A stretch of DNA of 61,366 bases, filler included, from Dugesia japonica (taxonomy: Eukaryota): the NCBI GenBank assembly GCA_001938525.1. It is 6 parts of 6 records of this genome, joined end to end, with 100 filler letters (N's around TTAATTAATTAA, not from the genome) between each part and the next. Parts side by side here need not be neighbours in the genome. Positions count along the whole stretch, not along the records: positions 11,407 to 21,150 come from MQRL01498290.1; 5 more parts are not named here. One strand, written 5' to 3'. Shown here piece after piece: positions 1 to 47,029 of the stretch (within the stretch, counting starts at the first letter, position 1; every line of letters starts with the position of its first letter). Position numbers and translations under genes: made by a program. The notes below the pieces were generated by a model, which was given only the letters and a program-made list of their open reading frames with translations, was not told where the DNA came from and ran no database searches.

Positions 1-2289
1 ATTCTTCAAGTAGTTACTAAATAAAAATTTCAAATAAATTCATAACGTTAGATTATTTGATTGAATTAGAGTTTTATTTATTTCGAGTCAAAATTTAAAG
101 TTTAATTTAATTGATGTCTTATCAATTATTTAAAATAAAATAAAATAAATAAATTTTTACATGTTTTCATTTGTCATAAAATTTCTATTAAACACAGTTA
201 AATTTATTATATTATTTACATAAAAGCAATTTAAATTAATCATATTAATTTCATAAAACCATATAAATTTAAATAAGTAAAAAGATTAAAAACTAAAGAT
301 TAAATAAATAAAATTTTGATATATTTTGACGGATCAATATCAGACAAAAATGAAAAATAATGAGTTTATTCAGTCGGTATTATTTAAACAAAGATTCAAC
401 CAATTATACTGATCATAAGATGGCTATAATCATAATTTTTAAAAATTTTTAATTGTCTATCAAATGGTATAGGTTTCAATACAAAATATTTCAAAATGGC
501 AGCTGTGTCGGCTTATTCAATTCTCAATTTTTATTAACTTTTTCTCCATGCGTCACTTAAAAATAGTAAATAGACCATCCAATAAAGCATTTGTTGCAAT
601 AGAATATTTTTACTTCAATGTGGCCTCAAAGAATCATTTTCTTTTTACCACGATTTTTATGGGAAAGAAATATTTTACGATACAAGTTTACGAGAGAATC
701 CTATCTTACGTTTTAATTTTCTATATAAGTTTAAAATTTAATAATATTGTTAAAAGTGGAGGTTTTTCTTTGTTCTATTGGGTTTNNNNNNNNNNNNNNN
801 NNNNNNNNNNNNNNNNNNNNNNNNNNNNNNNNNNNNNNNNNNNNNNNNNNNTCTCTATCGAATGGTATAGGTGTCAAAGCTACATGTTTCACAATGGCTG
901 GTGTTTAACGGCTTTATTTTTAAATCTTTTTACTAATTTTTCTGACTAGAAATTTAACTAAATCATATTTTTTGTCTTCCTATTCAGCATCTAATGATAC
1001 TAACGTTGTATTGATGAGATCAAAATTACACACTAGGTCTGAAAAACTCAAAAATATATTTTAACATTTATTGATTTCAACAATGACTCATCATTCCTTT
1101 GATGAATCTGAATGGCTCATTATGCATTATTCATTTAGGCAAATCATCATATATGACTCAGGACCATAGGAAGATCTTCGTTATCATAGTGTTCTTTTTT
1201 ATCCAACACATTATGACACATACATGGTGACTCATATAAGGTATTACTCATTGCAAACTGGTACCGTGTATAACTTATGGAGTTGATTCAAATTCAGGAC
1301 TCATATTTTCGAACAAAGAATCTATGTCTAGGATGTGAGGTCCATTTTTTTCTACTGACTCTCGGTTAAAAGTCATTTTTTTCCATGATACTAGTTCTTT
1401 AATCTATGTATAGATAGTATTTAATTGTTTATCAAATGCCACAGGTTTCAAAACAATATCCTTAAAAATGGCGGCTTTAATAACCTTTTATCCTGTTGCC
1501 CGATTGTAAATTTAACCACATCTAATTGTTCGTATTTCTTAGCGCATACAATGACACTAAGAGAGAGAGAGAATTGAAAGCATTAAAATTTCTTTTTCTA
1601 AATTTGTTGGGCTAGAACTTAGAGGAAGCGTGAAAAGTAAGAGACATGAGCCTGAGCAACAGATGAGCTTGAATAAGAAAATTCTAAGACATGTTTAAAA
1701 CCGCAAAGAAATTATGGGAGCTCGAGAGACAAACGAACAGAGAAAAGCGAGTGATGGCCCATGATATTTGTATGTTTGATGATGGTCAATTCCAATTGTT
1801 AATCTCTTCAGAATTTTCTAATTCTGTTTTTTGCTTATTTTTCTGTTTTTATTTGATGCAATTATTTTTTTGTATTTATCTAAAACTCTGATTTTAAGTC
1901 GTACTCGTTGAATACTAGTTCTATTCTTTGTTTTTTTGTTCGGTTCGTTGATGTTTGTTTTGTGTTTCTCAATTTTTTTGCTTTACAATTACATTTTTAT
2001 TTGACTTTTGCTGAAAATATTGCTGATTGATTTTTATAGTTTTTCGTAAACTGATTTAATTTATTCTGTGCGTCTACCAATCATGTCCCTCCATGATTTA
2101 CCTGGAAGCCCTGTAAGCGACTTCTTCGTGGCATTGGTAAATTTTATTGAAAGAGTGTGTTTAATTTTTGTACAATTATTTTTATTTATAATAGTTTGTT
2201 TTTGCACATTGAATATAAAAAACCAGATGTAATAATAAAATAGTTATTTTCTACTCTTAAAATTAATTGAATAAATACTGAAAATAAAC

Positions 2290-2709
2290 CTTTTTGCATC
2301 TATGCTGAATGGCAGCAACCAGATGATCCTGTAAATTTTTCCCAACATTGGGAACATGTTCTACAACTTTTATCGATTGAGTTTTCAATTGATTTCCATC
2401 ACCAACTCCACTGAGCATCAATAATTGAGGACTTTTGATAGAGCCTCCACATAATATTACCTCTTTATTTGTCATTATCTAACTAATTTAGTAAAATATT
2501 TAATATACAATAATAACCTTTTCTAATTGCTTTCTATTATTTAATACTTCAACACCAATTGCTCGTTTACCTTCAAATAATATTTTCGTAACTAGAACAC
2601 CAGTTGTTACTTTGAGATTATTATTATTCATTGCAGGTTTCAAAAAAGCTTTTGCTGCAGACCATCGTTCACCATTGTGAGTAGTACAATCAAATTCACC
2701 GATTCCTTC
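2290..2709 (-). CDS. Host GMC oxidoreductase (choline dehydrogenase-like), two internal exons (2518-2709, 2290-2478)
   Basis: The exons translate without stops as EGIGEFDCTTHNGERWSAAKAFLKPA...VTKILFEGKRAIGVE and KEVILCGGSIKSPQLLMLSGVG...PNVGKNLQDH, which are GMC motifs. They are joined by a 39-nt GT-AG intron (2479-2517), with an acceptor at 2710-2711 and a donor at 2288-2289. Confidence 0.92.
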
Positions 2710-3306: not shown

Positions 3307-4490
3307 TTTTTTTGTGGTTTATGAATACATGAAATTTTCATATACCGCACAAAAACAGGTTTGAGTGTAATTAATTGATTGCTTTATATCTTAAAGTAGA
3401 TGTTTACTTTTTATAATTCAACAAACGACAGTATAAAATAAAAAGCAAACATGATATACTTAGAAAACATACATGTAAAGACATGGAAATTATATCAGCT
3501 ACTTTCTGTTAACAACATTTATTAGTAAAATACGATATTTCTTTCTCCATTCAGTGACGTAAAATACTCGATAGGTGTAAGAAGAAATACAGAAAAAAAA
3601 ATACAGAGAATAATTTTTGAACTATTGATCATAATTTCATTTTCTTTTTTGTATTATATGAAATAACTTGTCGGTTTCATTAAAATATATAGACTTACAA
3701 ATATAACTAAATAAAAAATAAACTTATTTGCTGACTATTGTACAAGTTATGTTCAAATAAATACATAATTTTTAAACCTTTTATACACAAATCATAATAT
3801 GTTTGCTAAAACACAGCAACTTCATACAAAATATGTACTGATTTCGTTAAGTTATATACAAATCTACATAAATATTATATGTAATTTATCAAATTCATAG
3901 AAACATTTACAATTATTTCATATAAATATACTACATTTCGAGAAAATTTGGACCAATTTCATTATCTCATTTAAAATTACATGACAAATATATACAATCT
4001 TTATAATTTTTCATGAGTAATAAATTACATATAAAGTAATGAGACATACACAAACCTTATTACATCATAAAAATATGGTTTTCATTAAAATATGCAGCAA
4101 CTTATTGAGAATATACCAACATTTATGAAGTAATTTATCAGTTTCATTAAAATTATTAAATTTGGTTTTCGTATCCATATCATTTTACATAGTATTGTTT
4201 ATTCTTTCAGTTCCCTGTGATTAAAATAGAACAAATCTTGAAAATCTATTGAATACAACGATAAAAGACAAAAATATACTTGTAAAATTTATTAATCTTC
4301 AAATATGGAATCATTTCCATTAGATAAATTTACAATAGATCATCAATACCATGTCACTTATATGCTCTTGTTGGAAATCCTTTCAACATTGACTTGTTCA
4401 GACTGTACACTAGATGATCAGATAACCACTTTTTCGTCTTTCTTTTAGTTTTCTTTAACTGCTTTCATCAATTTTTCTACGTATCAACAT

Positions 4491-4585
4491 GAAAACTAGT
4501 AATACTAGGGCTTAAAAATTTGAATTTTCAAGGATATCTGAATAACATTACTTCAGATTTCTTTAATTTGCTTGAAAAAATTTAG
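4491..4585 (+). pseudogene. 3' end of Polinton TBP-like gene (5'-truncated)
   Basis: Translates KLVILGLKNLNFQGYLNNITSDFFNLLEKI*. DNA is near-identical to the reverse complement of 36341-36436, the end of the full TBP-like copy. Confidence 0.75.
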
Positions 4586-4695
4586 AAAATTCGCATGTTC
4601 AAATAATTAATATATTACGTTGTGGTTTTTTATTATGTATATATATATATATATATATATATTGTGTTTCGTTATTATTTCTTGTAAAATTAAAA

Positions 4696-4996
4696 ATGAA
4701 TTCATAAAATATTAAAGAAATACAAGAAAAATTCATGAAAACAGGTTGACTATTTATTAATTTGTAATTGTTTTTTAATTTTATATTTAGGAATGCTTGT
4801 TAATATATGTGAAGAACGTAGGATCCTAGACGAAGAAAGACAATTGTTCCTTCCGGAAGTAATGGAAAATCAGTATATGGCAGCTGATTTTTTCGCACCT
4901 GATTGTTTCGGGTGTGCAAAGTTTAATCTTATAATTGCTATGGAGAAGCATCTGGCTGAAATGAATGAATATATTGACCAATTTTGTTACCAATGA
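4696..4996 (+). pseudogene. Cassette gene A (small Cys-containing orphan), two exons
   Basis: ATG at 4696 with a stop at codon 4. 46-nt GT-AG intron at 4745-4790. Exon 2 reads MLVNICEERRILDEERQ...FAPDCFGCAKFNL. Homologue at 35718-36198. Confidence 0.75.
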
Positions 4997-5176: not shown

Positions 5177-5611
5177 TTAGATCTGGTTTTCGATGTTTTT
5201 GACTTTCCATATAACTCCTACCGAAATAATTCATTTCTTGAAGTCTTTAATATCCCCTCGAATCATATATTGACTGTCATCTTCATATTGGTTCTCGTAT
5301 CTTTCTTTAAAACTTATACAAATAGCTTCACTGGCTTCAATTTGTCTGCTTAATCTTGCAAACAGAATTTCCAGAATATTCCTATCCTTCTCATGAATTC
5401 CAGATAGAAGAAAACTAAATTTGGATCTTTTTATTGAAACTGGTTTCTAAAATAAAATATTAATTTATAACATTTAATAAAAAAATACTTTGAAGTCATA
5501 GATAATCGGTGTCCTCAAAAAGAACAACTTGTAATTGTGGAAATCAGTAATTTCCCCTAGTTCCACAGTTATTGTTGATACGTTTTCCTTAGTTAGTTGG
5601 TTTTCTTGCAT
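5177..5611 (-). pseudogene. Cassette gene B (~130-aa orphan), two exons
   Basis: MQENQLTKENVSTITVELG...IIYDFK | 42-nt intron 5447-5488 | KPVSIKRS...GIHEKDRNILE...SVGVIWKVKNIENQI*. One internal TGA. Homologues at 33590-34025 and 49370-49806. Confidence 0.8.
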
Positions 5612-5887
5612 TTTTGAAAAAGTGATAACTTTCATGTAAACATTTGCTTATATACTAGTTGTGATACACACATTCTCATTATTTGTGAGTTCCTATTAGT
5701 TAATATTTGCTACAATTGATATGATTTATTAATATTTCTTTTAACTGTTGCAATTAGGTAATGTTTGCTAAAATTGATATGATTCGATAATTATCGTTTT
5801 AATAGTTATGATTGGTTACCAGGTTTATATAAATAGAACCTGTTTTTAAAATTAAATTCACTTTTACAAAAGATTCCTTTTAATACT
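5612..5887. promoter_or_regulatory. Putative bidirectional TATA/Inr promoter between genes B and C
   Basis: TATATAAG on the minus strand (~5647-5654), TATATAAATAG on the plus strand (~5826-5836), TCACTTTT Inr-like motifs ~25-30 nt downstream of each, and an ATTGG box. The layout is conserved at 34026-34230 and 49807-50050. Confidence 0.55.
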
Positions 5888-11306: not shown

Positions 11307-11406
11307 NNNNNNNNNNNNNNNNNNNNNNNNNNNNNNNNNNNNNNNNNNNNTTAATTAATTAANNNNNNNNNNNNNNNNNNNNNNNNNNNNNNNNNNNNNN
11401 NNNNNN
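11307..11406. other. Artificial contig spacer
   Basis: N44-TTAATTAATTAA-N44 (stops in all six frames), exactly 100 nt. Confidence 0.95.
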
Positions 11407-11469
11407 CATAATTTTTCTTAATAATTAATTTGGTTGATTTAAACAAATTTCCACATATTTTTTGATTTT

Positions 11470-11891
11470 TTTGATAATTTTATGATGATCCAATGTTCCA
11501 CTTTTCCACTGGCAAAAACATTGAGACATAATGGCTTGTATTTGTTGACTCGTAATTATGGAAATAATTCTGGTTCGAACCATCAATCTAATACACTGCT
11601 CCATCTATATAAATTTACTCCCCGTCCAAGATCACATGTTACAGTAATTGATTGAATACCATCTATTTGGATATTGATATTTTTGCAAGTAATTGGTTTA
11701 TACGTGATTGGTTTTTTGCATCCCATGATTTGACATTTTCTCTATTCAAAAATAATTATTGAATAATCTTTTATTTTCTTTACACACTGTCAGGGTTTCT
11801 TCCAGGTATTTACTTGGAGATCTGAAGGTGAATCAATTAGATGATAAATTAATATTTGATAACATTGTTTGACAAATGAGCAATATTCATG
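11470..11891 (-). pseudogene. Polinton-encoded TBP-like protein
   Basis: Pieces across frameshifts: LSNINLSS, DYSIIIF..KCQIMGCKKP, IQSITVTCDLG.VNLY, WFEPELFP*LRVNKYKPLCLNVFASGKV. These match the TBP second-repeat motifs YEPELFP and IFxSGK. Confidence 0.78.
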
Positions 11892-11926
11892 AGCTTATAT
11901 ACTTTTTTTGTATAAAAAACCATTTC

Positions 11927-12564
11927 TATGGTTTTTTTAAATTGTTGCTACAAAACAACGCAGTTTTTCAAATAGTCGACCTTAATGGAAGCGTCAAAAC
12001 ATTATTTGTTTGCAAATTATACAAAGAAAACTGTTTCGGACAAAGTTTAAACATATTTATTGGAATCAAAGTGGTGGATATGAAACCTGATTGACTAATG
12101 GTGAATTTTGCAAGTTGAGAAAGATAACGATAATTAATAGATTCGATGATGCTTGGTTAAAGAGATTAAATACTGGGGATTTTATTGTAATCGATGACTT
12201 GTTTGAAGAGGCAAATAAGCAGGCTGGTTTTAAGAATCTTTTTACAAAGACTGCTCGACATGGTAATGTAACTGTCATCTTTATCACCCAAAGTCTTTTC
12301 CATCAAGGTGGTATGCATCGTATATGTACTCTAAATGTTCATTATTTGGTTTTATTCAAAAATCCACGAGATCAAACTGTGGTTGATTATGTTTCTCGTC
12401 AAGCATTTCCTCACAAAAAAGGATTTTTATCTGATGCATTTCGTGATGTTAAGGCACATGGATATTTATTTATTGATTTTTTCCAACAATGTACTGATGA
12501 TGAAAGAGTAAAAACCGATATATTCGATTCGGAAGAAATAACAGTTTACAAACCATTGCTATGA
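11927..12564 (+). pseudogene. Polinton packaging ATPase (A32/FtsK-like)
   Basis: Degenerate Walker A (IVDLNGSVKT), Walker B IVIDD, ARHGNVTVIFITQ, YLVLFKNPRD, HGYLFIDF. Confidence 0.9.
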
Positions 12565-12599
12565 ATAAAATTAGTACTTAAAAATAATAAAAATAAGAA

Positions 12600-13093
12600 A
12601 TGAATCAATTTAAAAAATTATCATCAAACAAAAGGGTAGCGGTGGTAGTAATTTAAGACGATTCTCAAGAATTATTCCATACTTAAAAGCAATTTTAAGA
12701 GCTCCATCAAATTCTCGATGGCAAATTATGCACTCAACGCCGGTATTTGTCATGAATGATTTCATTAGTGTTTTGCAACAAATTGTTTTGGGCTGAGTCG
12801 ATGTTGGTCATAAAATTGGAAAATATAGGTTGAAAAAGTATCAAGAAGCTCTTTTAGATATGGCAAAAGCAATGAATTTGGCAGCAAAGAAACGAATACT
12901 TGAAAGACATTTTCTTATACAAAAAGCAAACAAGAAGAAGGACAAAAAACAAGTTTATTATGGACAAAATGGAAATGGATTTTTTTGGGCTGCACTTTTA
13001 CCAATTCTAAGTTTGTTGGGTAAAGCGGCTGTAACCGGTGCAGTTGGCGCTGCTACAGGATATGCTACAAAGAAAATTATTGATTCTGTATAA
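12600..13093 (+). pseudogene. Conserved small Polinton virion-type protein
   Basis: IPYLKAIL...IVLG*VDV...QNGNGFFWAALLPILSLLGK: a QxGxG|F motif followed by an amphipathic segment. Homologue at 47625-47944. Confidence 0.65.
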
Positions 13094-13199
13094 ATAATTT
13101 AAATTGATTTTGATATTGCAATATAAATAGTTGTTCCACCTTCTAATATATCAGACATTTCACTAAATTTTCGTTGTTGTATTTTGCTCGATTAAGTTA

Positions 13200-14203
13200 A
13201 TGGAAAAACTATGGTTTAATCCAAAGGACCCGGTTGAATACACCGGTATTTCAAAGCTTGCAAATGCTTCAAATGTTTCGGTAAAAGAGATGAAGAAATT
13301 ATTAGGCAGCCAATTGGCGTATAGTTTAAATAGATCAATGTGAAAACGGTTTCCAACACTGAAATATATTGTTGCTGGGGTTAATAGACTATAGCAAATG
13401 GATTTGATAGAAATGATTCCATATGCAAGCTTAAGTAATGATTATTGATATATTTTGACATGTGTTGATGTATTTAATCGATTTGCACATGCAGTTCTAG
13501 TAAAACGGAAATCTGGTAAAGATATTTTGTTGGCTTTGACGGCAATGTTCAAAGATGCTCACCCAAAAGCTATTTAAACCGATTTGGGTAAAGAGTTTTA
13601 CAATACTCAGGTCAAATCATTATTGATACAATATAGTATACTGCACTATTCAGTATTTTTTCAGTACAAGACTGCTCTAGTTGAGCGATTTAATCCAACT
13701 CTACGCACACGATTAAAGAAGTTCTTTACCAAAAAGGTAGCAAAAAATGGAAACATGTTTTAATAAAAAATTTATGCATACAACCATTCTGAGCATAGAG
13801 TTATTGGAGGAAGAGGAAAGAAACCAGTTGATGTTACAGATGATGATTCCATCAATAAAAAACTAAAACCAAAATATAAAATTTGACAACATGTACGGAT
13901 TTCCAGAATTAGTACTACGGCATTCATCAAAAACTTTGAAAATAATTGGAGTGACGAAGTCTTTAAATCTCAGAAATCAACACGAGATAGTCACCAATCA
14001 TGCATACAATACGTGATGAAGATGATAATATTATTCAAGGCAAATTTTATGAGCAGGCTATACAAGTGTTATTGAAAACCCCAAGTTTAAATAGAATCAA
14101 ATCAATTCTCAAAACCAAAGATCAAGAAGAATATAAACAATATCTAGTTGAATGGCATGGGTGTTTAAAGCTTACGTGGATTCAAGCATCTCAAATCCAA
14201 TAA
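13200..14203 (+). pseudogene. Polinton rve integrase with C-terminal chromodomain
   Basis: QMDL, YILTCVDVFNRF, TDLGKEFYN, VERFN, NWSDEVF, IQGKFYEQ, QYLVEWHG. Multiple stops. Confidence 0.92.
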
Positions 14204-15543
14204 TGATTTTCTATATGATTTTGCCAAGCAATAGTTGTCCAAGAACTCGACCTGATAATAATGTGAGCAAGTATTTGGTTGACAATAAGAATGCCAACAA
14301 TTTAAAAGATGACCATTGGGAAGTTGTCATGACAGAATTTGTTTTCAATTATTGTCCACAATATTCAGAAAAGTTCAAAAATTGAATATAAAATAAGAAA
14401 GGTGATGGAAATTGAAGATAAATTTCAATTAAATATTGTAAATGGTAGTCTTCAACTTAATAATACAGTACATATCAAAAATTTTTAATTGGTATATATT
14501 TTCCAATAAAAGGAAAGTAATATTAAAAACAGATTGACAAGTAGAAATGGAGTTTAAAACGTTATCAGATGCTAAAAACTTTGGTTTCAATTTAATCAAT
14601 ACCAAAAATAAGAAGCCATAGTTTCAGTTATTGATGAGCAGTTGATTCTTGCAAATATTCCATCAATACCTTTAAAATTAAAGTTTAATACTATTGAGGA
14701 TGGAAAGGTTAAATTAAAGGAAATTGGAGAAAATATAAAATTTGAGAATAAAAATGGAAAACATGTTGTCTCTGGATTGAAAAATAAAACTAATTGCGAA
14801 ATCAGTATTAACTTTGAAAATAAAATAATTATCAAATATGATTGCAATATGGAATTGGAGTTTAATTCATTGTTTGATGCTTGGTTACTGGGGTTTAATT
14901 CACAAATGACGAAAAACCAACCAATGGATTCATTTATTGAATTAGATACTAAAATGTTGGATAATATCTCCAAAACTGATGTTAAATTAAAATTTACTGA
15001 AATCAAAACAGAAATAAATTAATTTGAATTTTAAAGTTATTTAATGGTTACGGATCTAGATAATCTAAATACATCATTTATAAAATTGTGCCATAAAATA
15101 TTTAAAGAATTTGTTTTAGATTCAAATTTTGGACTGGTCATGTTTAAATTACTTGATAATGTTGAATGTATCATTTGATGAGTCTTTCGCTAATACTCGG
15201 TCTTCCTTATGAGTAATTCTACAAATCTTCAGAACAAGTAAAGGGTTTACATAAACCACTATTACACGGTGGTATCAGACAACTNTATATTTACTTATCA
15301 ATAGTCTATCAAATTTAGGTTGGTGATGTACGCGTGCTACCTTTGAGAAGTATATAGGTTGATAGCAACAAGCATTCATTTGGTGATGTTGTACATGTAA
15401 GACTTGAAAATCAAATGTATTTACCTGTACAATCATCTTCCATCAACAAAATTGAAGTAAACATACGTGATGATACGGAAAGATTGATTGATTTTCCATT
15501 TGGATAAAAAACAAGTTTAACCCTACATTTTCAACAAGTTTAA
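14203..15543 (+). pseudogene. Polinton minor capsid protein (penton)
   Basis: N-terminus FYMILPSNSC...DNNVSKY...WEVVMTEF. C-terminus MYLPVQSSSINKIEVNIRDDTERLIDFPFG...LTLHF. A long variable middle includes ORF 14642-15022. Confidence 0.8.
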
Positions 15544-15599
15544 ACAATTTGATTACCATGTGATTCAATATTGAAATGGTTGATCGAGCTATTATCATA

Positions 15600-15980
15600 A
15601 TGTATAGTCGTCTACAAATGGGTGGAGACTTGCCAAATTTTATCGGTAGCCAGCAACAGCAAGATAGTGGAAATTGGTTGCATAGAATTTAAAGTTTTTC
15701 AATTCCAATTTTGCTGAAATTTGGACTTCTAATTGCAAAGTCAGTGTGGCGAGCAGCACTAAAAACTGTTGATGATGTTATAAGAAAGAAGCAGTCATTT
15801 AAAGAATCAATCAAAAACCAAGCACTGGATATGTTGCCGGATGTGAAGGAAAATATACTTAATGCATTAAAGGAGGTTGCTTTTGGACAGCATGGTAGTG
15901 GAATACTTAAACTGAAAAATAAAATAACATCAACTATAAACAAAGGACGACGATTAGATGGAAGTATCTTTGCAAAATAA
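15600..15980 (+). pseudogene. Second small Polinton virion-type protein
   Basis: QMGGDLPNFIGSQ...IPILLK...ALKTVDDVIRKKQSFKESIK...GQHGSG; carries MGG and QxGSG protease-site-like motifs. Confidence 0.6.
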
Positions 15981-16139
15981 GCATGTATGCCGGAAAAACT
16001 AAATTATAGGTTGATAGAATTGAATTCAATATAATTGGTTAATATTAGTATTAATAAAAATAATAATAATAAAAATTATTATTATTTTTTTAAAAAAAAT
16101 AATATTTAAGGCTTATCATTCTTTATGAAAAATTGTAAA

Positions 16140-16640
16140 GGTTAGGGTGTGAAAGTTCATGCCAAAGGTGTGAAATTTCATAGATTACATTAAGATGTAA
16201 ACGTTCACACCTTAAAACGTTCATTTAAATAACAATAATGATGTGCTTTTAAATATGCTCACGACAATAAAAAAATAGAAAACTTTTCGTTGTTTTTATA
16301 AGTGCGAAAGTTTACGTCAAATATGTGAAAATTACCACCTATAAAAAATTTTAATTATAATAATAAAACAATAATGTTTGAAAATTTGATATGTGATTAC
16401 AAAATCGTTGTTTGCATTTGTCCTTTGAAATTGGCATTAAAGGTATGAAAATTTGCACCTATAAAAAACATTTAAATAATAACATTAATATTAATTTTAT
16501 GTATTAATGTTCAATCCACAACACTTAAAACAAAAAATAATAAAATTAATTGTTTACATTAATTGTGATTAAAAAAATTAAGTTTTCAGGTCAAAAAATG
16601 TGTGAACATTCACACTTATTGTTGTTTATATTATGAGGAG
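16140..16640. repeat. Dispersed repeat built on the palindromic motif GTGTGAA-NN-TTCACAC
   Basis: About 7 degenerate copies of the motif. Reverse-complement homologue at 42565-43030. Confidence 0.65.
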
Positions 16641-16679
16641 TGAACAGTGATTACGTCACATCCTGTTCTAGAAATTGTC

Positions 16680-18875
16680 TAACCACCTAATTATATGACC
16701 CACATGCAATGACTTGTTCTAAATTTCTTTCATCTATTTGCGATAGAACTATCCCGATGACATCAAAATTCGCATCTGTATCTAATACAAACATCTTTTT
16801 TATATCTGGAAAGCTGAATATCGGTGTTTTTGTTAATGCCTCTTTCATCTCATTAAAAGTTTTATCACAAATTTTAGACTACACAAGTTTTGTATTATTA
16901 CTTCCACGTGGCTCGTTCAAGCTTCTAGCTTTCTTTGAGTAATTATTGATAAACCGTCTATAGTAATTGCATATTCTCAAAAAGCTTCTCAAGTTCTTCA
17001 CACATTTAGATCTTCCGAAAATTTTCATCACTTCAATTTTTGTTGGATCAGTTCGAACTTTATTCTTGTCTATGACATGTCCTAAAAATTTGACTTCTGC
17101 TCACAATAAATGGCATTTTCCCGGATTAATTCGCAATCCAGATTCTTGAGTTCTTTTAAAAACTTTGTCTAAACTTTTATAGTGCTGCTCTAAATTTTCT
17201 GAAAATATTACTATATCATCCAAGTATACCATCTTTTCTCTCGATCTTCATAATACTTTTGTAATTAATTCTTGAAACGTTCCAGGTGCTGCAGCTATAC
17301 CAAAAGGCATTTTTGTGAAATAATACTGTCCATTTTTCGTAAAAAATGCTTTAAGTCTTTGTTTAACGGAACTTAGTATGCATTACCCAAATCAATAGTA
17401 CTAAAATATCTTGAACCACTCAAATTGTCTAATATTTCCTCTACATTGGGCATCTGAAATGCCTGTCTTTCTGTGATTGCATTCAGTTTTCTAAAATCAA
17501 GACATAATCTTTCCTTTCTGTTCTCCAAATACATATTAATGGAGTGTTCCATTGTGAATTAAACTTCACAATAATGCCATTGTCAAACAAATTCATTATA
17601 GCTTCATCTATCCTATTCTCTAAAGGCATTGGTTGTCTCCTTGAATTCGTATTTATTAGTTCTCCATTTGTGATTATTTTATGTTTTTCCATTGTTGTTC
17701 TGTCGATAGTCTAGTTTTCTGACATGAATATACCTTTATGAATCATTATAACTTTCTCTAAATTCTCATTTGGCTTGTTAATCAATATTTTTATTGCTCT
17801 CTGTACTCTCTCTATATTCGCTGTATTGTATCCATACTTTAATTCTATATTACAAAGATACATTTCATTATCCTCACATTTAATCTCACTCAGCCGTTAA
17901 AATCCAAACTTTTTGTAATTCTATTCCTTCTATTAAATCAGGATATATCAGTTTCACCACAATGTACTTAACTGTTTAGTTTTTATTCCTGAATTTCACT
18001 TCTACCTTTAACGTACCTACGATTTCGAGCGGACTTTTATTAACACAGCATAAATTGTTTTCACATTTTAATATATTGACTTTACTCAATATATACAAAA
18101 TTTTCAAACTCATCACATTAACTCTTGCTCCAGTGTCTAACAAGCAATCAACTTTTACGCCCTGTATTTCAACCATTATACTTACTCTACCTTGCATCTT
18201 GTTATAACTTATATCTTGTCACTTTATCTCTTCTATCAACAAAATTTCACAGTCATCTTCTCCATTTATACCATTGATAATTTCCGGTTAGCTTCTAATC
18301 AATTCTTCCTTTTCAAACTTGTGAACCTTTTCTTTTACATCATTGTACTCTTCTAAACGTTTATCTTCATTTTTTATTTATATAACAATTTATACTACTT
18401 TTACTATAATTAACAATACTGCCATTTTTTGGGAAACTTAGTTCAATGCTCCGAAAATCTCAACTTCGGTCAGATCTTGGCCATTTGGGTATTCATCTTG
18501 ATAAATATTTGATCATTCATTACAATAGTGGCTTTTGTTTTATCTACACGCACAATCTTTACCATAACTTAATCTTAACGTTACTTTCATTCCTCTTTGT
18601 GTAATTATTCGTATGTTTTGAATAATATCTTTTTTGCCATTTCCGAATTCTTTTCTGGTCTGTTTATTTTTGTTTTGGTAACTAAACTGTTTTTTTCATA
18701 TTTGTGTGATAAGTCCTCTGTGTGGTGGCCTTTCTTGTTGCATCTTGAACAACTAACTTTGGTACAGTCTCTTCTTAAGTATTGTTCAGATACACAAGCA
18801 TAACACTTACTTTTTCTTTCTTTAAAATTTCTGTTTACATGAACTATTTTGTTACAGGTCCAACACGTAGTTTTT
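16680..18875 (-). mobile_element. Decayed Ty3/gypsy gag-pol (Zn knuckle, protease, RT, RNase H start)
   Basis: CSRCNKKGH knuckle, CLLDTGA protease, MPFGIAAAPGTFQ, VYLDDIVIFS, VKFLGHVI, FVLDTDANFDVIG. Confidence 0.9.
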
Positions 18876-18922
18876 GTACATTAACATAACATTAAAATTT
18901 AACGAAGCAAATTTTTTTTTAC

Positions 18923-19310
18923 CTGATTTATATATGATATCCGAAGACATATACATTCTTCCTTCATACTTTGCATAACAAGCAATCTTAATATCTTGAG
19001 GTACGAATTCTATATTTATTTTCAAAAACTTTGAATATTTTCCATCATGTATCAGTCTCGGCAAAATATATTTGTTCGCATATTCTGGCAATTGATCATT
19101 TCCTTTGCTTGGTATAATTGTTTCGATATTACCAATTATCAAAGTAAATTGGTATTCAATGTAAAAAATAACGTCATCAGATTCACATGATGCATTACTC
19201 ATAAAGTAAACATTTTTTATAGTTAATTTCCATGAGTCTATTAATTTTATTTGTATTTCAACAAAAATTATTACAATAAAAAAAAATCTTACTTGTTTTG
19301 ATAATTTCAT
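18923..19310 (-). CDS. First exon of an orphan putative secreted or membrane protein
   Basis: Open 129-codon frame with an ATG and a signal-peptide-like stretch (MKLSKQVRFFFIVIIFVEIQ), ending at a CAG|GTAAAA donor. Confidence 0.5.
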
Positions 19311-19929
19311 TAGATAGTAAAACAGTATAAATAAAAATCGTGTTCAATTCATAATCCACTAACATAATCGAATGAAACAATCAGACTAATAATCAATTTG
19401 TTATAAGAAATTTTCACTTAAAATAACAATAGGAAATTATTAAAATGGTTTTCTTTTCAATTATTTCAAGTGTAGATTTCTCAATTAAAAAAATGCTATT
19501 TTTCAAAGAGAAATTTAAAGAGAATATCGTTTAAATTATAACAAATTTTATTATACATATAACATTGATTTAATTATTCAATAATGAATATTGATTGTTT
19601 AAAATGTTTAATTAAAGTCATAATATTTATCACAGATTTCAATTTATCACGATGTTCTTCGTTTTCTATTTGCTAGCTGCAAATTATGATTAAATGATTT
19701 CCTAAAATATCGTTTAAAACACAACTTTTACTTTCATCTGAAAAGATTTTGATAATTCTTTAGATTTCAGAATTTGTTGATATTCGAACCCATTTTCATA
19801 CCATTTTCATCCTGTTTTACATTTATTAAAATTTGAAAATATTTAAATAAAATTTTAGTATTTAGTTAATAGAATGATGAAAGTTATTATTTTTTTGAGA
19901 AATAAAATTATTTTTAAATGTAAACCAAT

Positions 19930-20500
19930 AAGTTGCTGTCAGTTTTTCATATATTGTTGATCATGATCGAAACAAGTGTTGGATTTGAAAAGTTAAAATC
20001 TTTTCTATCCATTCCAATGACAAAGCAATTTGGAAAGATCATGATTTACAGTTTGTTGAACTTTGATTCAAACTTGCATTTTGAACTTACACCGCATTAT
20101 CGCGCCATAAACGCTTAACTGTATTGAGAACTCATTTTTGCGTCTATGAAGTCCTGGTTGAAAACTACATAAATCTTGTTCGTAGAAAAATCGTTTTATG
20201 TGAACAGGGCAATGCAAACATACACACTATCGGAAAGACTTGGAATTAGTTTGAAAAACTGGATGGTATCGAGGTTCTGCCGCATCAAATCTATAGTCAA
20301 GCCTGTGCTCCATATGACCATTGTCTCTACTGACCAATGCAGCACTTTTTGTAAGAAATAGTACTTGAGTTATTTTATGAAGTTTAATGAGCCTTGTCAA
20401 AAATTATTCAATAAAACCGAATGATTGGTACTTTGACAACATTTGGAAGCTTAAAGATCGTAAGCAGAAGGTCGGGAAGGTCTTTGTTTTGATAAATAGC
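19930..20500 (+). pseudogene. mariner transposase remnant (catalytic domain)
   Basis: EVLPHQIYSQACAPYDHCL..PMQHFL resembles the mariner EVLPHPPYSPDLAPSDYHLF..MQHFL motif. Confidence 0.75.
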
Positions 20501-20969
20501 TAATGTTCTTGAATAAGTTCTTACATGAAAAAATCGTTACTTTAACATGGCGCACGAATTTTTTCCTCCACTTACTAAATTATTGTATCAATTAAACTAA
20601 CAAAGAGGTACTAAATAAAATTTGAAAAACAAAACCCTACTGTTCAAATATCTTTTATCTCGAAAATTTTGTTAATAAAATGATATAATCCACCGTCTGT
20701 CTAAAACTAATAGTCAAAGTATAGCCGATTCATTTGGGATCTATCAAAGATTTTTTAAAAAACTATTTTCAAACAACTATTGTTGTTGAGATTTTTAACA
20801 GAAGCGGATTTAATTATTTTGAAATTTGAGGTGAAATTTATTAAAATTGAAAATGTTTTAAATTAAATTAGTAAAATATATTTATGATAAATATTAAATT
20901 TATTTTAAAAAACTTATTTAATTTTGAAATCAAATAATTCTATTAAAAAGTAATTTAAAATTTATTATA

Positions 20970-21010
20970 CACCAGTCATACCCGGCCACTTGTGGCTGCG
21001 GCTCAGTTTG
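20970..21010 (-). mobile_element. Possible Helitron-like 3' end
   Basis: Minus strand has a GC-rich hairpin GCCACAAGTGGC followed about 10 nt later by CTGG-T. Confidence 0.35.
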
Positions 21011-21150
21011 GTTCAATGAAACAGAAAAGAAAAGAGAATGAATACGTTTTCTAATTATTTTACTTTACAATGCTTGTGGATATACAATATTTTTTGTTGT
21101 TCCATTGTTTGTGTAGATATAATTGAACGAACATGGCTTATATATCTATT

Positions 21151-21250
21151 NNNNNNNNNNNNNNNNNNNNNNNNNNNNNNNNNNNNNNNNNNNNTTAATT
21201 AATTAANNNNNNNNNNNNNNNNNNNNNNNNNNNNNNNNNNNNNNNNNNNN
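21151..21250. other. Artificial contig spacer
   Basis: N44-TTAATTAATTAA-N44. Confidence 0.95.
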
Positions 21251-25172: not shown

Positions 25173-27179
25173 AAAAAATATAATGATTTCGCCAATTCAA
25201 AATTTGTACTGTTTTAATTAAGGTTGAAACAGTAAGAAAATTACATCATTCTACAAAAGAAAATTGGTATAGTAATTATAATAGTTAAATGAAATTAAAA
25301 TAAAATATATTGCCGACAAAAATTAGCGTGAATCATTTTTGTCAACTATTGTAACTTATTTCTTTTTATCAATTTACGCTAGAAAATTATAATGAAACAA
25401 TTATCACATTATAATATTTATAATTAGTATTTTCTATTTGTCATAAATAAATATTTACTTTTTCAATAATTGTTTTTCTTTCCAAGACTTGAATACATAA
25501 ACAAATAATTATTTTCCTATTGCTACGTATTACACTTATATGTATACATGTACAATATAATTATTTTTAATATGTTTTTCTTTGACGTCTCCGTATCAAT
25601 TAAAAATTTATAAATTCCCGATTATTTTATTAATCTAATGACAAATTTTCAATGATGTATTTAGCGTTAAATATTTATTGCATTTTAAATTATGATTCCT
25701 ACTAATTTATCTACAGTTTATATAGTATTTTCTATATAATAGTATGTTTACTTCTCCATTCACCTCTATTTGTACACAGATGAATTTGTTTACTATTTTA
25801 ATAAATGAATTCAATTTTTTATTACTTCATTTGCTTGTTGTGATCTTTGTGGCTTACTTATATAACTTATATAAATTTATATTTAAATTACTTATAAATT
25901 TTCACGAAAAAATTTTGTATTTGTTTATTTGGCTTATTAAATTCCTAAATTCAAACTGAAATTTAAAAAGGAAGCACCAACAAATTAGTAATTTTTTTAA
26001 TATAAATGACCTTAATTTTTGAAAGTTTATTATTATGGTCATCAAAAATAATTCCAGATTTACCGAGAATAAACGTTATTTTATTAATACAATGAAAGTA
26101 TGATGTCATGCTGATTTCAATTTAATTATACTTATTATATTCGGCAGTTTTTTGGCAATTTCAATAGTAGTTTATCAAGTTGCCCTGTATAGGCATTCAT
26201 TTAAATTAGTAAATTCATTTTTGGAACTTTATCCTCCTTATCTAGAGTTTAATAAGTTAAATAATGTTTCAATAATAATTTAAATTGATGGAAAATAAAT
26301 ATGAACACGAAATTTACGAAAAATGTCAAACATACATTTATTTGCAAAATAATGCATGATTAAATGACAAAATAATAATTCGATAAAAAATAATTCACAA
26401 GTGTCCACGAACTTATAGAATACCCTTTTAGTCTGAACAAGTGACATAAAAATAAACATGATAAAACCTTGTAAACTAAAGATTTCACTGGATTCGAACG
26501 TGTTATCTTACAAAGTTAAATATTACTTACTCATTTTTCCTTTTCATTTTAACAATATTAATATATTTTCGTCCTATTAATATATGTTAGAATCAAGTAT
26601 TTAGTGTGTCGTCAATGTGTAGAATAAAAAATTTAATTCTTTTGAACAATAAAATCTCGATCAAGAACATTTGTCAATTAATTTATCGGTTAAAAATATT
26701 AGTGAAATTTTAAAGAAATTAAATTGTATTTTTAATTATTATATATATCTTTATTTTATACATAAAAAATATAAAAAATAGTTTTTTATTCTAATGAAAA
26801 TCTAAATATATTTAATGTTCATTAAAAAGTCTTGTATTGATTTTCCCCACTTTGATAACATAGAAGCATTATCCGACTTTAATCAAGAATCTTAAGATAA
26901 TTATAATAATTACATTTTGCATTTATATATTTATTTTAAATAATATTAATTTTCATTTATACATTGCAACAAATCACAGTTACTGTTTACTATCAGAAAG
27001 ATGGTATTTTTGTGATTGAATTAATGGTTATTTGATCATATTAATCAAAATTTTCAATTTACGAATATTTCTGAGTTTATAAATATAATTATAAATATAA
27101 TTAAAATTATAATCAGTCTACAAATATAATTATAATTTCATATTCTCCAGATATTATTATCTACCTTTCACCGTTTTTC

Positions 27180-28634
27180 GATTTTGTATGCTTATTCAGT
27201 TATTCTGTTTATCAATATTTTTATTGCTCTCTGTACTCTCTCTTCATCCGTTGTACTGTGTCCATATTTTGCTTCTATATTACAAAGATACTTTTCATTG
27301 TCCTCTCATTTAGTCTCTCTCAGCTGTTGGAATCCAAACTGTTTCTGTAATTCTATTCCTCCTATTAGATCTGGATGTATCTGTTTCACGACTATGAATT
27401 TAACTGGTTCGCTTTTCTCGAATTTTTCTTCTACTTTTATCGTACCTACTATTTCGAGGTGACTATTATTGGCACATCTTAAATTGTCTTAAATTTTTAA
27501 TATATTGACTTTTATTTATATCATTATTTATACTACTTATTCTATAATTAACAATACTGCAATTTTTTGGGATACTTAATTCAACGCTTCGACAATCTCG
27601 ACTTCGGTCAGAGCTTCGCCATTTGGGTATTCATCTTGATAAATATTTGAACCTTCATTACAATAGTGACCTCTGTCTTCTCTACATACACAATCTTTTC
27701 CATTTTCTCAATTGAATTAACGTGACTTCATTCTTCTTGTGTAGTTATTCGTATTGTTCGAATAATATCTTTGGTTGTCATTTCCGAATACATTTCTGGT
27801 CTGTTCACTTTTATTCTGATAACTAAACTGCCTGATTATATTTGTGTAACAGTCCTCTGTGTGGTGACCTTTCTTGCTGCATCTTGAACAACTAACTTTG
27901 GCACAGCCTCTTCTCAAGTGTTTTTCAGATCAACAAGCATAACACTTTTTTTTCTTTCTTGACAATTTCTGCTTACATGAACTTTTTTGTTACAAGTCCA
28001 ACACGTTATTTCTCGTCTTTCATTGTTTCTGTTCTGTTACATTCCTTTATTTCGACTCCTGTTGAAATTTTTTTGTTCCAGGATTTCGGCGAACTGCATC
28101 TCTGTAGTTACGAACTACATTTATTTCTTCAGTTTTTACTTCGTCTTTTATGTCTTCCNNNNNNNNNNNNNNNNNNNNNNNNNNNNNNNNNNNNNNNNNN
28201 NNNNNNNNNNNNNNNNNNNNNNNNNNNNNNNNNNNNNNNNNNNNNNNNNNNNNNNNNNNNNNNNNNNNNNNNNNNNNNNNNNNNNNNNNNNNNATTAACC
28301 TTTCTACCAATCTTTCAATCTTCTTTTTATAGATATTTATATGCTCTCTATTCCTTCGATAATTTTGAACTTCCTCCATATCTTTAATCATTGTTGATGG
28401 CCGAAAAAAAACCTTTCTGAATTTTTCTTCAAATCTCAATGATTCGTCTTCATTTTCATAGATTTCACGCAGTTCTTTATCTATGAAAGATACTCTCCTC
28501 TGGTCTTTCTTTGTTCTAGTTATATCAAAAAATTTCGTGGTCTTCAAAATAAAATTTTCGACATCATCGCCCAATTGGAAAATTCCAGAGTTCATGGCTT
28601 CTTTTAGCAAATCCAATGATGCGTTGGGCGCCAT
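27180..28634 (-). mobile_element. gypsy gag/protease fragment, same family as 16680-18875
   Basis: gag ORF 28047-28634 and a CSRCSKKGHHTEDC knuckle. DNA aligns with 17790-18870. Confidence 0.85.
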
Positions 28635-30117: not shown

Positions 30118-30217
30118 NNNNNNNNNNNNNNNNNNNNNNNNNNNNNNNNNNNNNNNNNNNNTTAATTAATTAANNNNNNNNNNNNNNNNNNNNNNNNNNN
30201 NNNNNNNNNNNNNNNNN
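30118..30217. other. Artificial contig spacer
   Basis: N44-TTAATTAATTAA-N44. Confidence 0.95.
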
Positions 30218-33200
30218 TATATATATAATTATATTCATTCTAGTCATATTAAACCTCCTTGGTATTTCCATGATTATCATAGGTATTTTTATATTTTAAT
30301 ATGTATAAAACAAATTTTACTAATTTATCATTTAAAATATTGTTACATAAATATTTCATTTATTTATTTATTGTTTAAAATAATTATTTATTATTTATTT
30401 TTTTAAAAATAATATTTAAATAAGCTTTAATTGTTGATTGGAATAAACTTCATTAATTTTTAGATCTGGTTAGTAAATATTTGTAGAATAATAAATCAAT
30501 GTATAATCCATTTATATACAATGGATTCATAAAATCCATTTCTATTTTTTCGTATTTAATAAGAATAAAAATCATTTTTGAAATTTTCTATCTTATTTGA
30601 CGTTAGCAAACAAGTTCATTGAAACCAGAAAATACACTTCTCAAAAGGTTTTTCAAAAATTATTTGCATTTAATAGTTCTGTTACAAACCATATTTTATT
30701 TTGCATTAAATTTGATAGTACACAGTGTGACAATTAAGTTTTAAGACTGGGTCTGTAAAATCAAAAGAAAGCAAAATATAAAAAATTTATTAATTTCTTT
30801 TTCAAAATAATCCCATCCGGTGTCAATGTATCTGTTACACTGATTAAATAAAGATTGAAATGCCTGTTTCAGATTATGTTGATATTAGGTAGATACGAGC
30901 GCACTGGAACAGCAACCCCCCAGCCGTCGACTGTTTTACTAATTTCAGTGTTTTGACTGTTTTAGTATGGAATAATTTTGATTGGTCATTACAAAGACGT
31001 GAAAAATCTTTTCGAATTCGGGTTGGAACGGTCGAATGTTTACTCGGGAAGGTCGAAAATGCAAATTTTCGGTACAAAGTTTTTCAGCCAAATTTTATCG
31101 TGTGATTTCAAATTTGTTATTGATCGTCTTAGAATTGAAAGCATGGGAACACCCCCCTCCACCCAAGGGAAAATTAGTTTTTTTGGAAGATTTTTTTTTA
31201 TTTTTTCTTGTTTAAATGAGGTTAAATTATTTATTTTGTTTAAATGAAGTAAGATTATTGATTTTTTGTTTAAATTAAGTCAAAGTAATTATTTTTGTTT
31301 AAATTGAATGAAATTATTGATTTTTTATTTAAATTAACGAAATTAGTGTTTCTTTGTTTAAATTAATCGAAATTAAATGACTGTTCGTTTAAATTTAATG
31401 AAATGAATAATTTTTCAGTTTCTTCATGGAAAAGTTATTGAAAAGCTTGTTTCGTTTAATTAAACAAAAGTTATCAAATGTAATTTTATCCTCGGAAACA
31501 CATTACGCTTGAGCTGTGTTTTTTGTCATGATTTTTGTGCTCTTTTTTTTCTATTTTTTTCGAAAATTTTTGATCGGATAAAATTTTATTTTGATTGTAT
31601 CAGTTTTTTTGATCCTGAGTGTGTTTTTTTAAATTTTGTGTGTGTTTGGGTTGCTAAGGTGATTTTTAAAAAGAAGGTCAAGTTGAGTTTGTGTGTATGG
31701 TTGTGTGTGTAAGAGTGGAAAAACGAGGAGGAGGAGTTGGAGATCTTGGAACTAATTTTTTTGTAGTTTTAAGGATTTGGTTGTGGTTTGACAAAAATTT
31801 GGTCTATATATTGTCTAAAGGACTTATGAGTTTGGATGGATGGTTTTCGCTTCAAGGGTATTGACACACGCGAACAGTCGTATGAGTTATCGTGGGGTGT
31901 TTTTAGCGAAGCTGTAGGGTTGTATGTGGTTGATGGAATTTGTTTGTTGATGGGTTGTTGGAGAGGTAATGTGATGGTGAAGATTTTGGTTGTCGAATGT
32001 GCTTTGATTTTTATTTTAAAGGCTTGGATTCAATTGGTTTATTTTGTAAGTAGTATAAGTGTGTTAAAAGATTTTTTTGTGAGGTAGAGGTTGGTATGTT
32101 TGGAAAGAAAATTAATTATCAGATGTTTTAAGATTTATTTGAAATTTTTTTGTCACGTGGTTATGACGTCATAATTTTTTGAAGTCTTTACTTTGGTTAA
32201 AAATGCTGTATTTTGCTTAAATTGATGAGTTTAATGAAAGTAATGTTATTTTTGAGTATTTGATGTATTTTTGTTTAATTTTTTGGTATTTTTGAACAGG
32301 GAAGAGTTGTTTTTTTTAATATTTTTGAACGGGGAAGAGGGGAGTCAGATATTTTTGAAAACTTTTTTGGCGGGAAATTAAAAAAAATATTTTTGTTGGG
32401 AAATTCAAGAATTAAATATTTTGGTTGGAAAATTAACATTTTTCATTTCAATGGGGGGAAATCTTTTTAATATAATTAAATTTAATTATATTAAACTAAA
32501 TTAAAATAAAATAAATTAAATATTGAATGAGGGGCCACTATATTTAACATGGGGAGCCTCTATATTTAGCATATTATGGGACAGACTTGATATTTTTCAA
32601 AGTATGAGACAGTCTAAAATTCAAAGGCTCGTGATTTTCAGTGTATGTGTGTCGCAGCTTTAACGCTTCTGATTTACATGATAAAAATATAACTATTAAA
32701 AAAATCATAGAGTCTTTGTGATATTTGCATAATAAAAAATAACTTTTATTAAAATATTCTTTGAGACATTTACAAGATAAAAGTATATCTATCAAAAAAC
32801 TTCAAAGAGGGGAGTATTTTTAATATTTACATGTTAAAATATATCTATCAAAAAACTTTAAAGAAGGGAGTCTTTGTGATATTTTCATGATAAAAATATA
32901 TCTATCAAAAAACCTCAAATGGGAGAGTCTTTGTGATATTTACATGATACAATATTCAAATTAAAACTTTTCTTTACAAAATGATAAAAACATTGAACGT
33001 TTCTCATAAAAAAAAACATATAGGTCATGCAATTTTTCTAAAAAATAATATTACCGATTTCATTTTTAATAGAAAATCTCAATACCGATGTAATTTTTAA
33101 AAAAGAATCTCATCACCGATGCACCTTTTAATAAAAAATCTCATTAGCGATGCGATTTTCCGTTAGAAAACATAAAACATATTGGTGATGNNNNNNNNNN

Positions 33201-33589
33201 NNNNNNNNNNNNTTGGTGATACAATTTATACATAAATAAACATATTACTAGTGACAATATTTCTATAAAAAACATATAAGTCATGCAATGTGTCTATAAA
33301 CAAACATATATCCAGTGACAATATTTCTATAAAAAATATATTAGTCATATAATATTTCTATAAAAACATATTGGTGATGCAGGTTTTCTATAATAAACAC
33401 ATATGTACTGACAATTTTCTTATTATTTATTATTTGTGTAGTTACCATGTATTAATTACATAGTAACTGTGTATTAAAGGTTTCATGAGTGTATTATTTG
33501 CTATTAAAATTAAAAAGACTTTGTTTTCATAAAGATTTATTTCAGTATATAAAAAAACATGACACTAAGCAAACATTAAGTAAACAAAT

Positions 33590-34025
33590 TTAGATCTTTT
33601 TTGTAATATTTTTAACTTTCCATATAACTCCTACCGAATTAATGGACTTCATGAAACCTTTAATCTCCACTTGAATTATATATTGGTTGTTCTCATCATA
33701 TTGGTTTTCGTCTCTTTCTTTATAACCTATATAAATAGCTTCATAGACTTCAATTCGTCTGCTTAATCTAGCAAACCGACCTTCCAGTATATTTCTATCC
33801 TTCTCATGAATTCAAAATAGAAACAGACTAAATTTAAATCTTTTTATTGAAACTGGTTTCTAAAATAAAATATTAATTTATAATGAAATATAAAATAATT
33901 ACTTTGAAGTTATAAATAATTAGAGTCTTCAAAAAGAACAACTTGTATTTGAGGAAATCTGTAATTTTTCCAAGTTCCACAGTTATTGTTGAGACGTTTT
34001 CCTTAGTGAGTTGATTTTCTTGCAT
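33590..34025 (-). pseudogene. Cassette gene B, copy 2
   Basis: MQENQLTKENVSTITVELGK...YNFK | 43-nt intron 33860-33902 | KPVSIKR...QVEIKGFMKSINSVGVIWKVKNITKKI*. One internal TGA. Confidence 0.8.
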
Positions 34026-34264
34026 TTTTGAATTGTAAAAGTGATTAACGTTATGTAAACCTTTGCTTATATACTAGTTGCGGTACACGCATACTCATTA
34101 TTTTTGAGTTTCAATTTGTTAATGTTTGCCAAAATTTATATGATTTGTTAATATTTATTTTAACAGTTATGATTGGTTACCGTGTTTATATAAATAGGAC
34201 TCTTTTTTAAAATAAATTCACTTTTTACTTTTTTAAATGAAAAATTTTTGAAAAATCTTTTCAA

Positions 34265-36198: not shown

Positions 36199-36340
36199 TT
36201 TAAAATTACAAGACAATAATAATGAAATACAATAAAACCACAAAGTTATATATTCATTATTTGAAATTTAAATATCTAAATTTAAATTTATATTTTTTAT
36301 ATTTGAACTGTAAATGTTTTGCATCCGTGTTACGAATTTT

Positions 36341-43351: not shown

Positions 43352-43451
43352 NNNNNNNNNNNNNNNNNNNNNNNNNNNNNNNNNNNNNNNNNNNNTTAAT
43401 TAATTAANNNNNNNNNNNNNNNNNNNNNNNNNNNNNNNNNNNNNNNNNNNN
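43352..43451. other. Artificial contig spacer
   Basis: N44-TTAATTAATTAA-N44. Confidence 0.95.
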
Positions 43452-43514
43452 ATGTGTGCCACCGCCTATTTACATTAGAAAAATTAAAAAACAGTTATGT
43501 AATAATCCGATTAC

Positions 43515-43574: not shown

Positions 43575-43639
43575 ATTAAAACCTAAATTTTGATCAAAGC
43601 TTTTATATTAAATGAATATCCATCTAATTTATAATTACT

Positions 43640-47020: not shown

Positions 47021-47029
47021 CTTGATTTC

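Follow-up and report, generated by a model that had tools for sequence, protein, structure and literature searches.

Polintons of one lineage carry a gene for a shortened TBP (the mini-TBP), and the structural genes of these elements are mostly preceded by a (C/T)ATAAAC box. We propose, with a probability of about 0.6, that the mini-TBP is a late-promoter factor that reads this box before the packaging and putative capsid genes and so operates an early-to-late switch. The gene, its conservation, the selection acting on it, its residues and the distribution of the box are directly visible in the DNA of the elements.

The Polinton copies in the window

The window is the whole stretch of 61,366 nucleotides (filler included) of Dugesia japonica DNA analysed here (assembly GCA_001938525.1): AT-rich eukaryotic DNA made up of six contigs, here named s1 to s6. 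Artificial spacers of the form N44-TTAATTAATTAA-N44 occupy 11307-11406, 21151-21250, 30118-30217, 43352-43451 and 52631-52730, and features on either side of a spacer are not neighbours. Two TBP/ATPase copies lie on separate contigs, s2 (11407-21150) and s5 (43452-52630), so that their orientation relative to each other carries no meaning. All four mini-TBP copies in the window, two of which (on s4 and s1) the earlier sequence-only reading had overlooked, are broken by stops or frameshifts; the window copies are likely to be decayed members of a Polinton lineage encoding its own shortened TBP.

On s2, the mini-TBP gene (11445-11865, minus strand) has both lobes, with four in-frame stops and a start that is out of frame with the main frame; it matches PF00352 at 25.1 bits, above the cut-off of 22.9, and solved TBPs in the PDB. 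A divergent spacer of 62 nt (11866-11927), probably with promoter function, separates its ATG from that of an A32/FtsK-like packaging ATPase (11928-12564, plus strand; tblastn), which is frameshifted near the 5′ end and has 148 homologues, mostly PF04665. The plus strand continues with a small basic gene of cluster C5 (12659-13009), a broken RVE integrase (13182-14185; the cluster representative has rve and Chromo), a broken penton-like gene of cluster C8 (14152-15537) and a cluster C20 gene (15591-15977), placed by homology, which in relatives precedes the putative major capsid gene. On s5, the mini-TBP gene (about 48905-49111, plus strand) comprises the first lobe only and stands about 75 nt from a packaging ATPase with five stops (48233-48832, minus strand). 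Homology places fragments of the small basic, integrase and penton-like genes beyond the ATPase (46744-47989, minus strand), and the contig also holds the 3′ piece of a protein-primed PolB (44604-45065, plus strand; the cluster representative has DNA_pol_B_2). The s5 TBP piece alone gives no match in a Pfam search; it matches the mini-TBP family by tblastn (E 6e-11), and its DNA is 80% identical to the Pfam-positive s4 copy. Contig depth on s5 drops to single-copy level from 49130, which argues that the truncation is private to that copy.

The sequence-only reading had described both copies as head-to-head pairs with starts less than about 100 nt apart, running on to a small virion protein, an integrase and a penton, and as substantially different in protein. 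Each of these points is borne out. The gene succession is confirmed by homology, while the ‘virion’ label of C5 and the ‘penton’ label of C8 follow the gene order usual in Polintons; a Pfam search gave no match for either family. Identity between s2 and s5 is 59% for the ATPases (79/134 aligned residues) and 36% for the TBPs (16/44 residues).

The third mini-TBP (s4, 36358-36821, minus strand) is frameshifted, and its second lobe reaches 27 bits with PF00352 (cut-off 22.9); the s4 contig has no ATPase match beside this copy and no ATPase, integrase or PolB match anywhere along it. The fourth (s1) is a C-terminal tip (about 4484-4590, plus strand) that adjoins a 5′ piece of an integrase, assigned by homology (4267-4428, minus strand). 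With the divergent orientation kept, this pair is best read as the product of a deletion.

Among the traits of Polintons, the RVE integrase and the A32-like ATPase are present, and PolB is represented by the piece on the s5 contig and by DNA_pol_B_2 in the related locus L059, with no PolB match on the s2 contig. Clusters C11 and C8 stand in the order expected for major and minor capsid genes; neither has a Pfam match, and C11 is without a match in the window. Shared terminal-type repeats are present, in addition to an inverted pair in s4, and no true end or 6-bp target duplication was identified in the window.

Several further features of the window deserve mention. The s4 stretch at 31554-37523 resembles a rearranged, possibly non-autonomous element, in which TBP and gene A and an oppositely oriented block of genes B and C stand between terminal-type repeats; these include an 89% inverted pair (32777-32911 and 37389-37523). 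A C20 gene piece on s5 (45773-45991) lies on the plus strand, opposite that copy's other structural pieces, which suggests another local inversion. One more Polinton copy is seen on s6, as a larger PolB piece (52733-53917) 41-48% identical to the PolB of locus L008. LTR-retrotransposon remnants, recognised by eye (gag zinc knuckle, protease, RT, integrase end), occupy 16690-19310, 27100-28000 and 58350-58960, and one of them interrupts s2 after the C20 gene. Exon-like pieces at 2266-2709 (minus strand) presumably belong to a GMC oxidoreductase-type host gene.

The arm on the TBP side had been called regulatory, with the order TBP-A-B-C-terminus. This proves too narrow: gene B is predicted to encode a ssDNA-binding protein, neither gene A nor gene C matches anything in the related loci, and the termini were not located. 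Gene A (4793-4996, plus strand; 35718-35921, minus strand) was traced by tblastx and has no match in s5. Gene B, likely of two exons, matches the cluster C4 profile in three window copies (5234-5647, about 33593-34073 and 49430-49824, all minus strand; E 4e-6, 5e-5 and 5e-3), and has no match in the Atlas or PHROGs. The C4 model (pLDDT 92) aligns best to the SSBs of Enc34 and T7 over about 104 residues (rmsd 2.8-2.9), with Z scores of 8.4 and 8.0 that are barely above the tool's stated background of 7-8; Foldseek returns no match for the model at E<=0.001, although the T7/Enc34-type SSBs ranked first all the same. The predicted product is a T7 gp2.5-type OB-fold ssDNA-binding protein. As gene B would fold like a phage ssDNA-binding protein, the arm may be better called early/replication than purely regulatory.

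Gene B is seemingly spliced, with cluster C10 as its possible first exon in relatives (C10+C4). In other lineages, clusters C14, C17 and C21, which lie near TBP, resemble additional proteins of the ssDNA-binding type when judged by eye. Cluster C2 (24 loci; for example L030:2913-3404) is a conserved gene of about 160 residues, often beside TBP and sometimes duplicated, with no Pfam match; we take its N-terminal D-x-E motif to be nuclease-like. TBP-bearing Polintons also carry accessory genes of the PLA2-like, KilA-N, C2H2 zinc finger, RING and LRR kinds (L059-L080 group; L035:1918-3327; L064:13315-13893).

The mini-TBP and the (C/T)ATAAAC box

A profile of the window pieces finds 89 proteins, most of about 145-165 residues and 88 of them with PF00352; a word-free search yields 65 clusters at 50% identity (E up to 1e-30). 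The locus set is the best 80 of 174 confirmed metagenomic matches, with L081, a weak viral match, excluded from every count. A Polinton hallmark gene is found in 38/80 loci and a hallmark or shared accessory gene in 75/80. Further divergent TBP-like proteins have a short first lobe (P0277, P0296, P0303, P0313, P0319, P0344 and P0346), and the family may reach past the sampled loci.

The model of an intact relative, P0134 (pLDDT 94), superposes on solved TBPs with TM 0.68-0.78 at 18-25% identity, and predicts a two-lobed, pseudo-symmetric saddle with a reduced first lobe. The second lobe is full length, with a spacing of 50 residues against 51 in cellular TBP. Spacings in the first lobe are 40 and 27 residues against 50 and 39, so that it is about 10 + 12 residues short (about 22), and the model has no helix of at least four residues there. 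F39, F98, F114 and E96 occur in 68/68 sequences and E94 in 65/68 (D otherwise), the glutamate counts being inflated and partly circular because the pattern EPE(L/I)FPA served to fetch the loci; in a word-free check, with cellular TBPs mixed in, E occupies the two positions in 122/148 and 140/148 stretches. From their alignment position, F39 and F114 are probably the DNA-contacting Phe L5.1 of each lobe.

The article of Ravarani 2020 (PMC7221094) assigns the two C-lobe glutamates to the TFIIB contact and the basic cluster of helix N.H2 to a regulator-binding patch. That N-lobe H2 patch is absent from the mini-TBP (spacing 27 against 39 residues, no helix in the P0134 model), which argues that it is not a canonical eukaryotic TBP. 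Judging from the alignment and the model, the mini-TBP family appears to retain the TFIIB-contact glutamates and to be without the regulator-binding helix. Viral TBPs, as the article text has it, generally lose both the TFIIB signature and the regulator site and are often paired with a viral TFIIB (PMC7221094). A Pfam scan of 39 representative ORFs found no TFIIB or RNA polymerase family.

The box was sought de novo in 120-nt upstream regions, with near-identical regions collapsed. ATAAAC is the top 6-mer, found ahead of 72/77 structural genes against 52/182 other genes, in loci that were selected for carrying TBP and are related, so that the box counts are not independent. Within 120 nt upstream, (C/T)ATAAAC precedes 68/77 genes of the structural set (shuffle mean 3.2, maximum 10), and no antisense occurrence is found in these regions. 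It stands ahead of the ATPase (24/25, and 23/24 where the start was placed by profile), C5 (14/17), the penton-like gene (11/14), C20 (6/6), the putative capsid gene (9/10) and the protease (4/5), and also ahead of integrase (11/15), C2 (15/20), PLA2 (10/12) and LRR (5/5) genes; counts for TBP (1/64), C4 (3/20), C17 (1/7) and PolB (1/3) are low. For the ATPase, the box lies 7-72 nt ahead of the next in-frame ATG, mostly 32-38 nt. Where it falls within the C-terminal codons of the ATPase it is spelled alike in 20/20 cases (24 genes examined, four without a box there), yet synonymous use is 71% for TAT and 66% for AAA. In the window, intact boxes lie at 14132-14138 (plus strand), inside the 3′ end of the integrase and ahead of the penton-like gene, at 15935-15941 (plus strand), within the C20 gene, and at 48235-48241 (minus strand), in the 3′ end of the s5 ATPase. 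An exact box ahead of the ATPase is absent from both window spacers; in that of s2, TATATAAG (11894-11901, minus strand) faces TBP, 36 nt before its ATG, and a TATAAA run (11911, plus strand), an inexact match to the box, faces the ATPase, 17 nt before its ATG. Upstream of gene B, TATATAAAC occurs in all three window copies (5829, 34190 and 49852, all minus strand) and fits a host TATA and a late box alike.

These elements suggest a sequence of events in which binding, partner and timing are what we infer. The mini-TBP and ssDNA-binding genes would be transcribed early by host TBP and Pol II from ordinary TATA promoters. The mini-TBP would then bind the (C/T)ATAAAC box, and its two retained stirrup glutamates would recruit host TFIIB, hence Pol II; through the loss of the first-lobe basic helix it would escape control by TFIIA, TAF1 and Mot1. 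Late genes would be expressed as a result. In this host, the head-to-head layout would set early and late promoters back to back after a local inversion. Upstream regions of TBP genes contain TATAWA[ATG] in 31/64 cases (shuffle mean 16.6, maximum 24) and a TATA plus initiator-like pair in 9/64 (shuffle maximum 5): TBP genes avoid the box and use an ordinary TATA, as an early activator would be expected to do.

It is unlikely, in our estimate, that the reader of the box is instead a host factor or a large DNA virus acting as helper, with the mini-TBP otherwise employed as a TFIIB/TATA decoy or in end-binding during replication. TATAAAC does resemble a host TATA box, TBP frequently stands beside ssDNA-binding genes, and the literature, as far as it was covered, reports helper-virus promoter sharing for virophages and PLVs. 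A host or helper factor would account less readily for a C-ending box, with its C-starting variant, that is invariant across divergent lineages and even within codons, or for TBP genes that avoid the box and have the ordinary TATA of an early activator. The box data come from TBP-bearing Polintons alone. Searches for TBP-less Polintons through the ATPase gave none, or three weak loci, in viral contigs; the putative capsid gave none, phages none, and prokaryote genomes only 17 weak P-loop matches, which were left unused. What ties the box to the protein is a correlation inside TBP-bearing, related elements, and Polintons as a whole may have the box.

Improbable, too, is that (C/T)ATAAAC serves the gene before it, as a signal for polyadenylation or termination, and is not a promoter. 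In tandem arrays the box is often found within the 3′ end of the gene upstream, and it resembles AATAAA; against this, ATAAAC follows a T or C in 67/74 cases and an A in four, and AATAAA itself is not enriched (18/77 against a shuffle mean of 16.4). TBP genes likewise follow genes on the same strand but have no box, which argues that the box tracks the downstream gene.

Of the public runs listed as containing the window sequence, none is recorded as RNA. Poly(A) reads placed at 80% likeness are few (842 and 105 on s2, 677 and 90 on s5), and none is 99% alike. Those over s2 fall on both strands; those over the s5 TBP are skewed to what would be the sense strand if the library were of the dUTP type, and over the ATPase two runs, of unrecorded strandedness, disagree. 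Loose poly(A) ends near 12580-12617 were set aside as artefacts of an A-rich stretch there.

The wider claim, that in a broad lineage of Polintons the early-to-late switch is self-contained and works through one TBP of 150 residues, with its own (C/T)ATAAAC box, host TFIIB and no surface for host regulators, we regard as evenly balanced between true and false.

Gene order and inheritance

The sequence-only reading can be taken to mean that the head-to-head TBP/ATPase pair is ancient and fixed, and marks the point where a structural arm meets a regulatory one. The pair is indeed present in two window copies whose ATPases differ as described above, and a third keeps the orientation after deletion. 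Public DNA contigs were placed on the window at 80% likeness to check the layout in the host. Among the 15 of 159 joints listed for s2, three stay on one strand from the TBP side to the ATPase side or past it, and their shorter flank measures 34 to 82 letters. Among the 15 of 86 listed for s5, eight skip within the spacer, three with at least 31 letters on the shorter side; the listed joints of both contigs include no change of strand. The listed host contigs span the junction without switching strand, and the divergent layout is therefore common to other copies of both subfamilies in this host.

Elsewhere the picture is different, and an ancient fixed junction becomes highly improbable. Among the 28 of 80 metagenomic TBP loci that also hold an ATPase, none is head-to-head: TBP stands upstream of the ATPase on the same strand in 25 (within 450 nt in 17 of these), the two genes are divergent at 385 and 1700 nt in two, and TBP is at the far end of the structural block in one. 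Additional loci carry TBP at the far end, past the protease and gene C2. Upstream of TBP at least 250 nt are available in 68/80 loci, and an ATPase start lies within 150 nt in none of them. The s4 contig is without an ATPase, and s2 and s5, which fall into different TBP subclades in a quick version of the tree, are not placed as sisters, a placement that is weakly settled; the trees would be compatible with one inversion or two. Hence the adjacency claimed as fixed is kept by the host's other copies and fails as a general trait: as such the head-to-head junction is refuted, and it survives solely as a trait of this host's subfamilies.

A likely origin is close at hand. In locus L011, B, TBP and ATPase follow one another on a single strand; turning TBP round where it stands reproduces the order of the window, which makes a local inversion the simplest explanation. 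The proposed mechanism does not depend on the head-to-head layout, which is likely one among several that are tolerated; the layout in itself is of little importance.

The gene, in contrast with its orientation, is an old and fixed part of the element, as had been claimed, on the evidence of the 89 family proteins, the 80 loci, purifying selection and distances that track those of the ATPase. Median dN/dS is 0.20 (maximum 0.42) over 43 unsaturated pairs among 68 intact ORFs. Selection between subfamilies is also seen in the window, where s2 and s4 differ by pN 0.32 and pS 0.74 over 75 codons; the pN/pS intervals are 0.31-0.64 for s2 against s4 and 0.29-0.82 for s2 against s5, and reach 1.0 for s4 against s5, with synonymous sites near saturation. 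Of the two outcomes that the sequence-only reading named as refuting it, a general lack of the adjacency is what was observed, and a lack of purifying selection is not.

ATPase and TBP trees were compared over 21 loci and the two window copies, after removal of L021 and L023, which are near-duplicates, and of ORFs that are short or partial. The distances correlate (Mantel rho 0.65, 0/2000 permutations) and one deep split is common to both trees, but of six well-supported ATPase splits only two recur in the TBP tree and two conflict. This points to long co-inheritance of TBP with the ATPase, probably with some exchange or weak signal.

A single captured host TBP, since decayed, would fit the broken state of all four window copies, and is refuted by the family, the loci and the selection and by the nearest relatives (closest P0126, P0130 and P0006), which are mini-TBPs from other datasets, 40-67% identical, against 18-25% identity to solved cellular TBPs.

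Known systems and implications

Cellular and archaeal TBPs (PF00352) share with the mini-TBP the two-lobed saddle, the Phe in both lobes and the EPE stirrup of the C-lobe. The mini-TBP differs in its size (about 150 residues), in a first lobe about 22 residues shorter and without a full helix, in its identity of 18-25%, and in being borne by a mobile element. Nucleocytoviricota, which are dsDNA viruses, also have TBP-like proteins with this fold (22 matches in BFVD at E<=0.001), but at 9-18% identity; these viruses mostly encode their own TFIIB, according to the article text (PMC7221094). The herpesvirus vTBPs (KSHV ORF24, EBV BcRF1) are functional analogues only, viral TBP mimics that steer host Pol II to late promoters (PMC12529657). 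In the account given there, ORF24 is a large multi-domain protein within a viral complex and is predicted to be incompatible with TFIIB (PMC12529657), whereas the Polinton protein is a bare, stand-alone TBP core of about 150 residues that keeps the TFIIB-contact residues; it is not a member of that family, and BcRF1 is a weak fold match (E 5e-3).

The elements themselves resemble Polintons/Mavericks (adintoviruses) in their PolB, RVE integrase, A32-like ATPase and adenain protease, held in a conserved block. For these, the abbreviation ‘TBP’ appears in the legend of Fig. 5 of Starrett et al. 2021 (PMC8502044 and preprint), for at least one MELD virus; section 3.4 and one supplement of that paper (PMC8502044) contain no TBP family, distribution, structure or promoter box. 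The main texts of the Polinton papers PMC10748475, PMC8097293, 10.64898/2026.06.19.733378, 10.1101/2024.03.25.586562, PMC11131425 and PMC8363768 do not mention TBP or TATA. The published trace of a Polinton TBP that we found is thus a legend label; the gene could yet appear in Repbase reports, in journals behind subscription, in figures or in the bulk of the supplements, among them those of PMC7221094 and of the bioRxiv papers. The literature searched gives no account of how the structural genes of Polintons are timed. Polintons are not known to have an RNA polymerase of their own.

A dedicated TBP with a matching box would offer a concrete and directly testable mechanism for this timing, and would amount to a herpesvirus-like late-gene strategy in Polintons. 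A bare TBP that keeps the TFIIB contact and has lost the regulator helix would be a natural experiment on the minimal TBP. If the proposal is true, the protein and its box form an orthogonal TBP-promoter pair, a candidate promoter tool, and would supply a missing control point in explaining why integrated Polintons rarely make particles.
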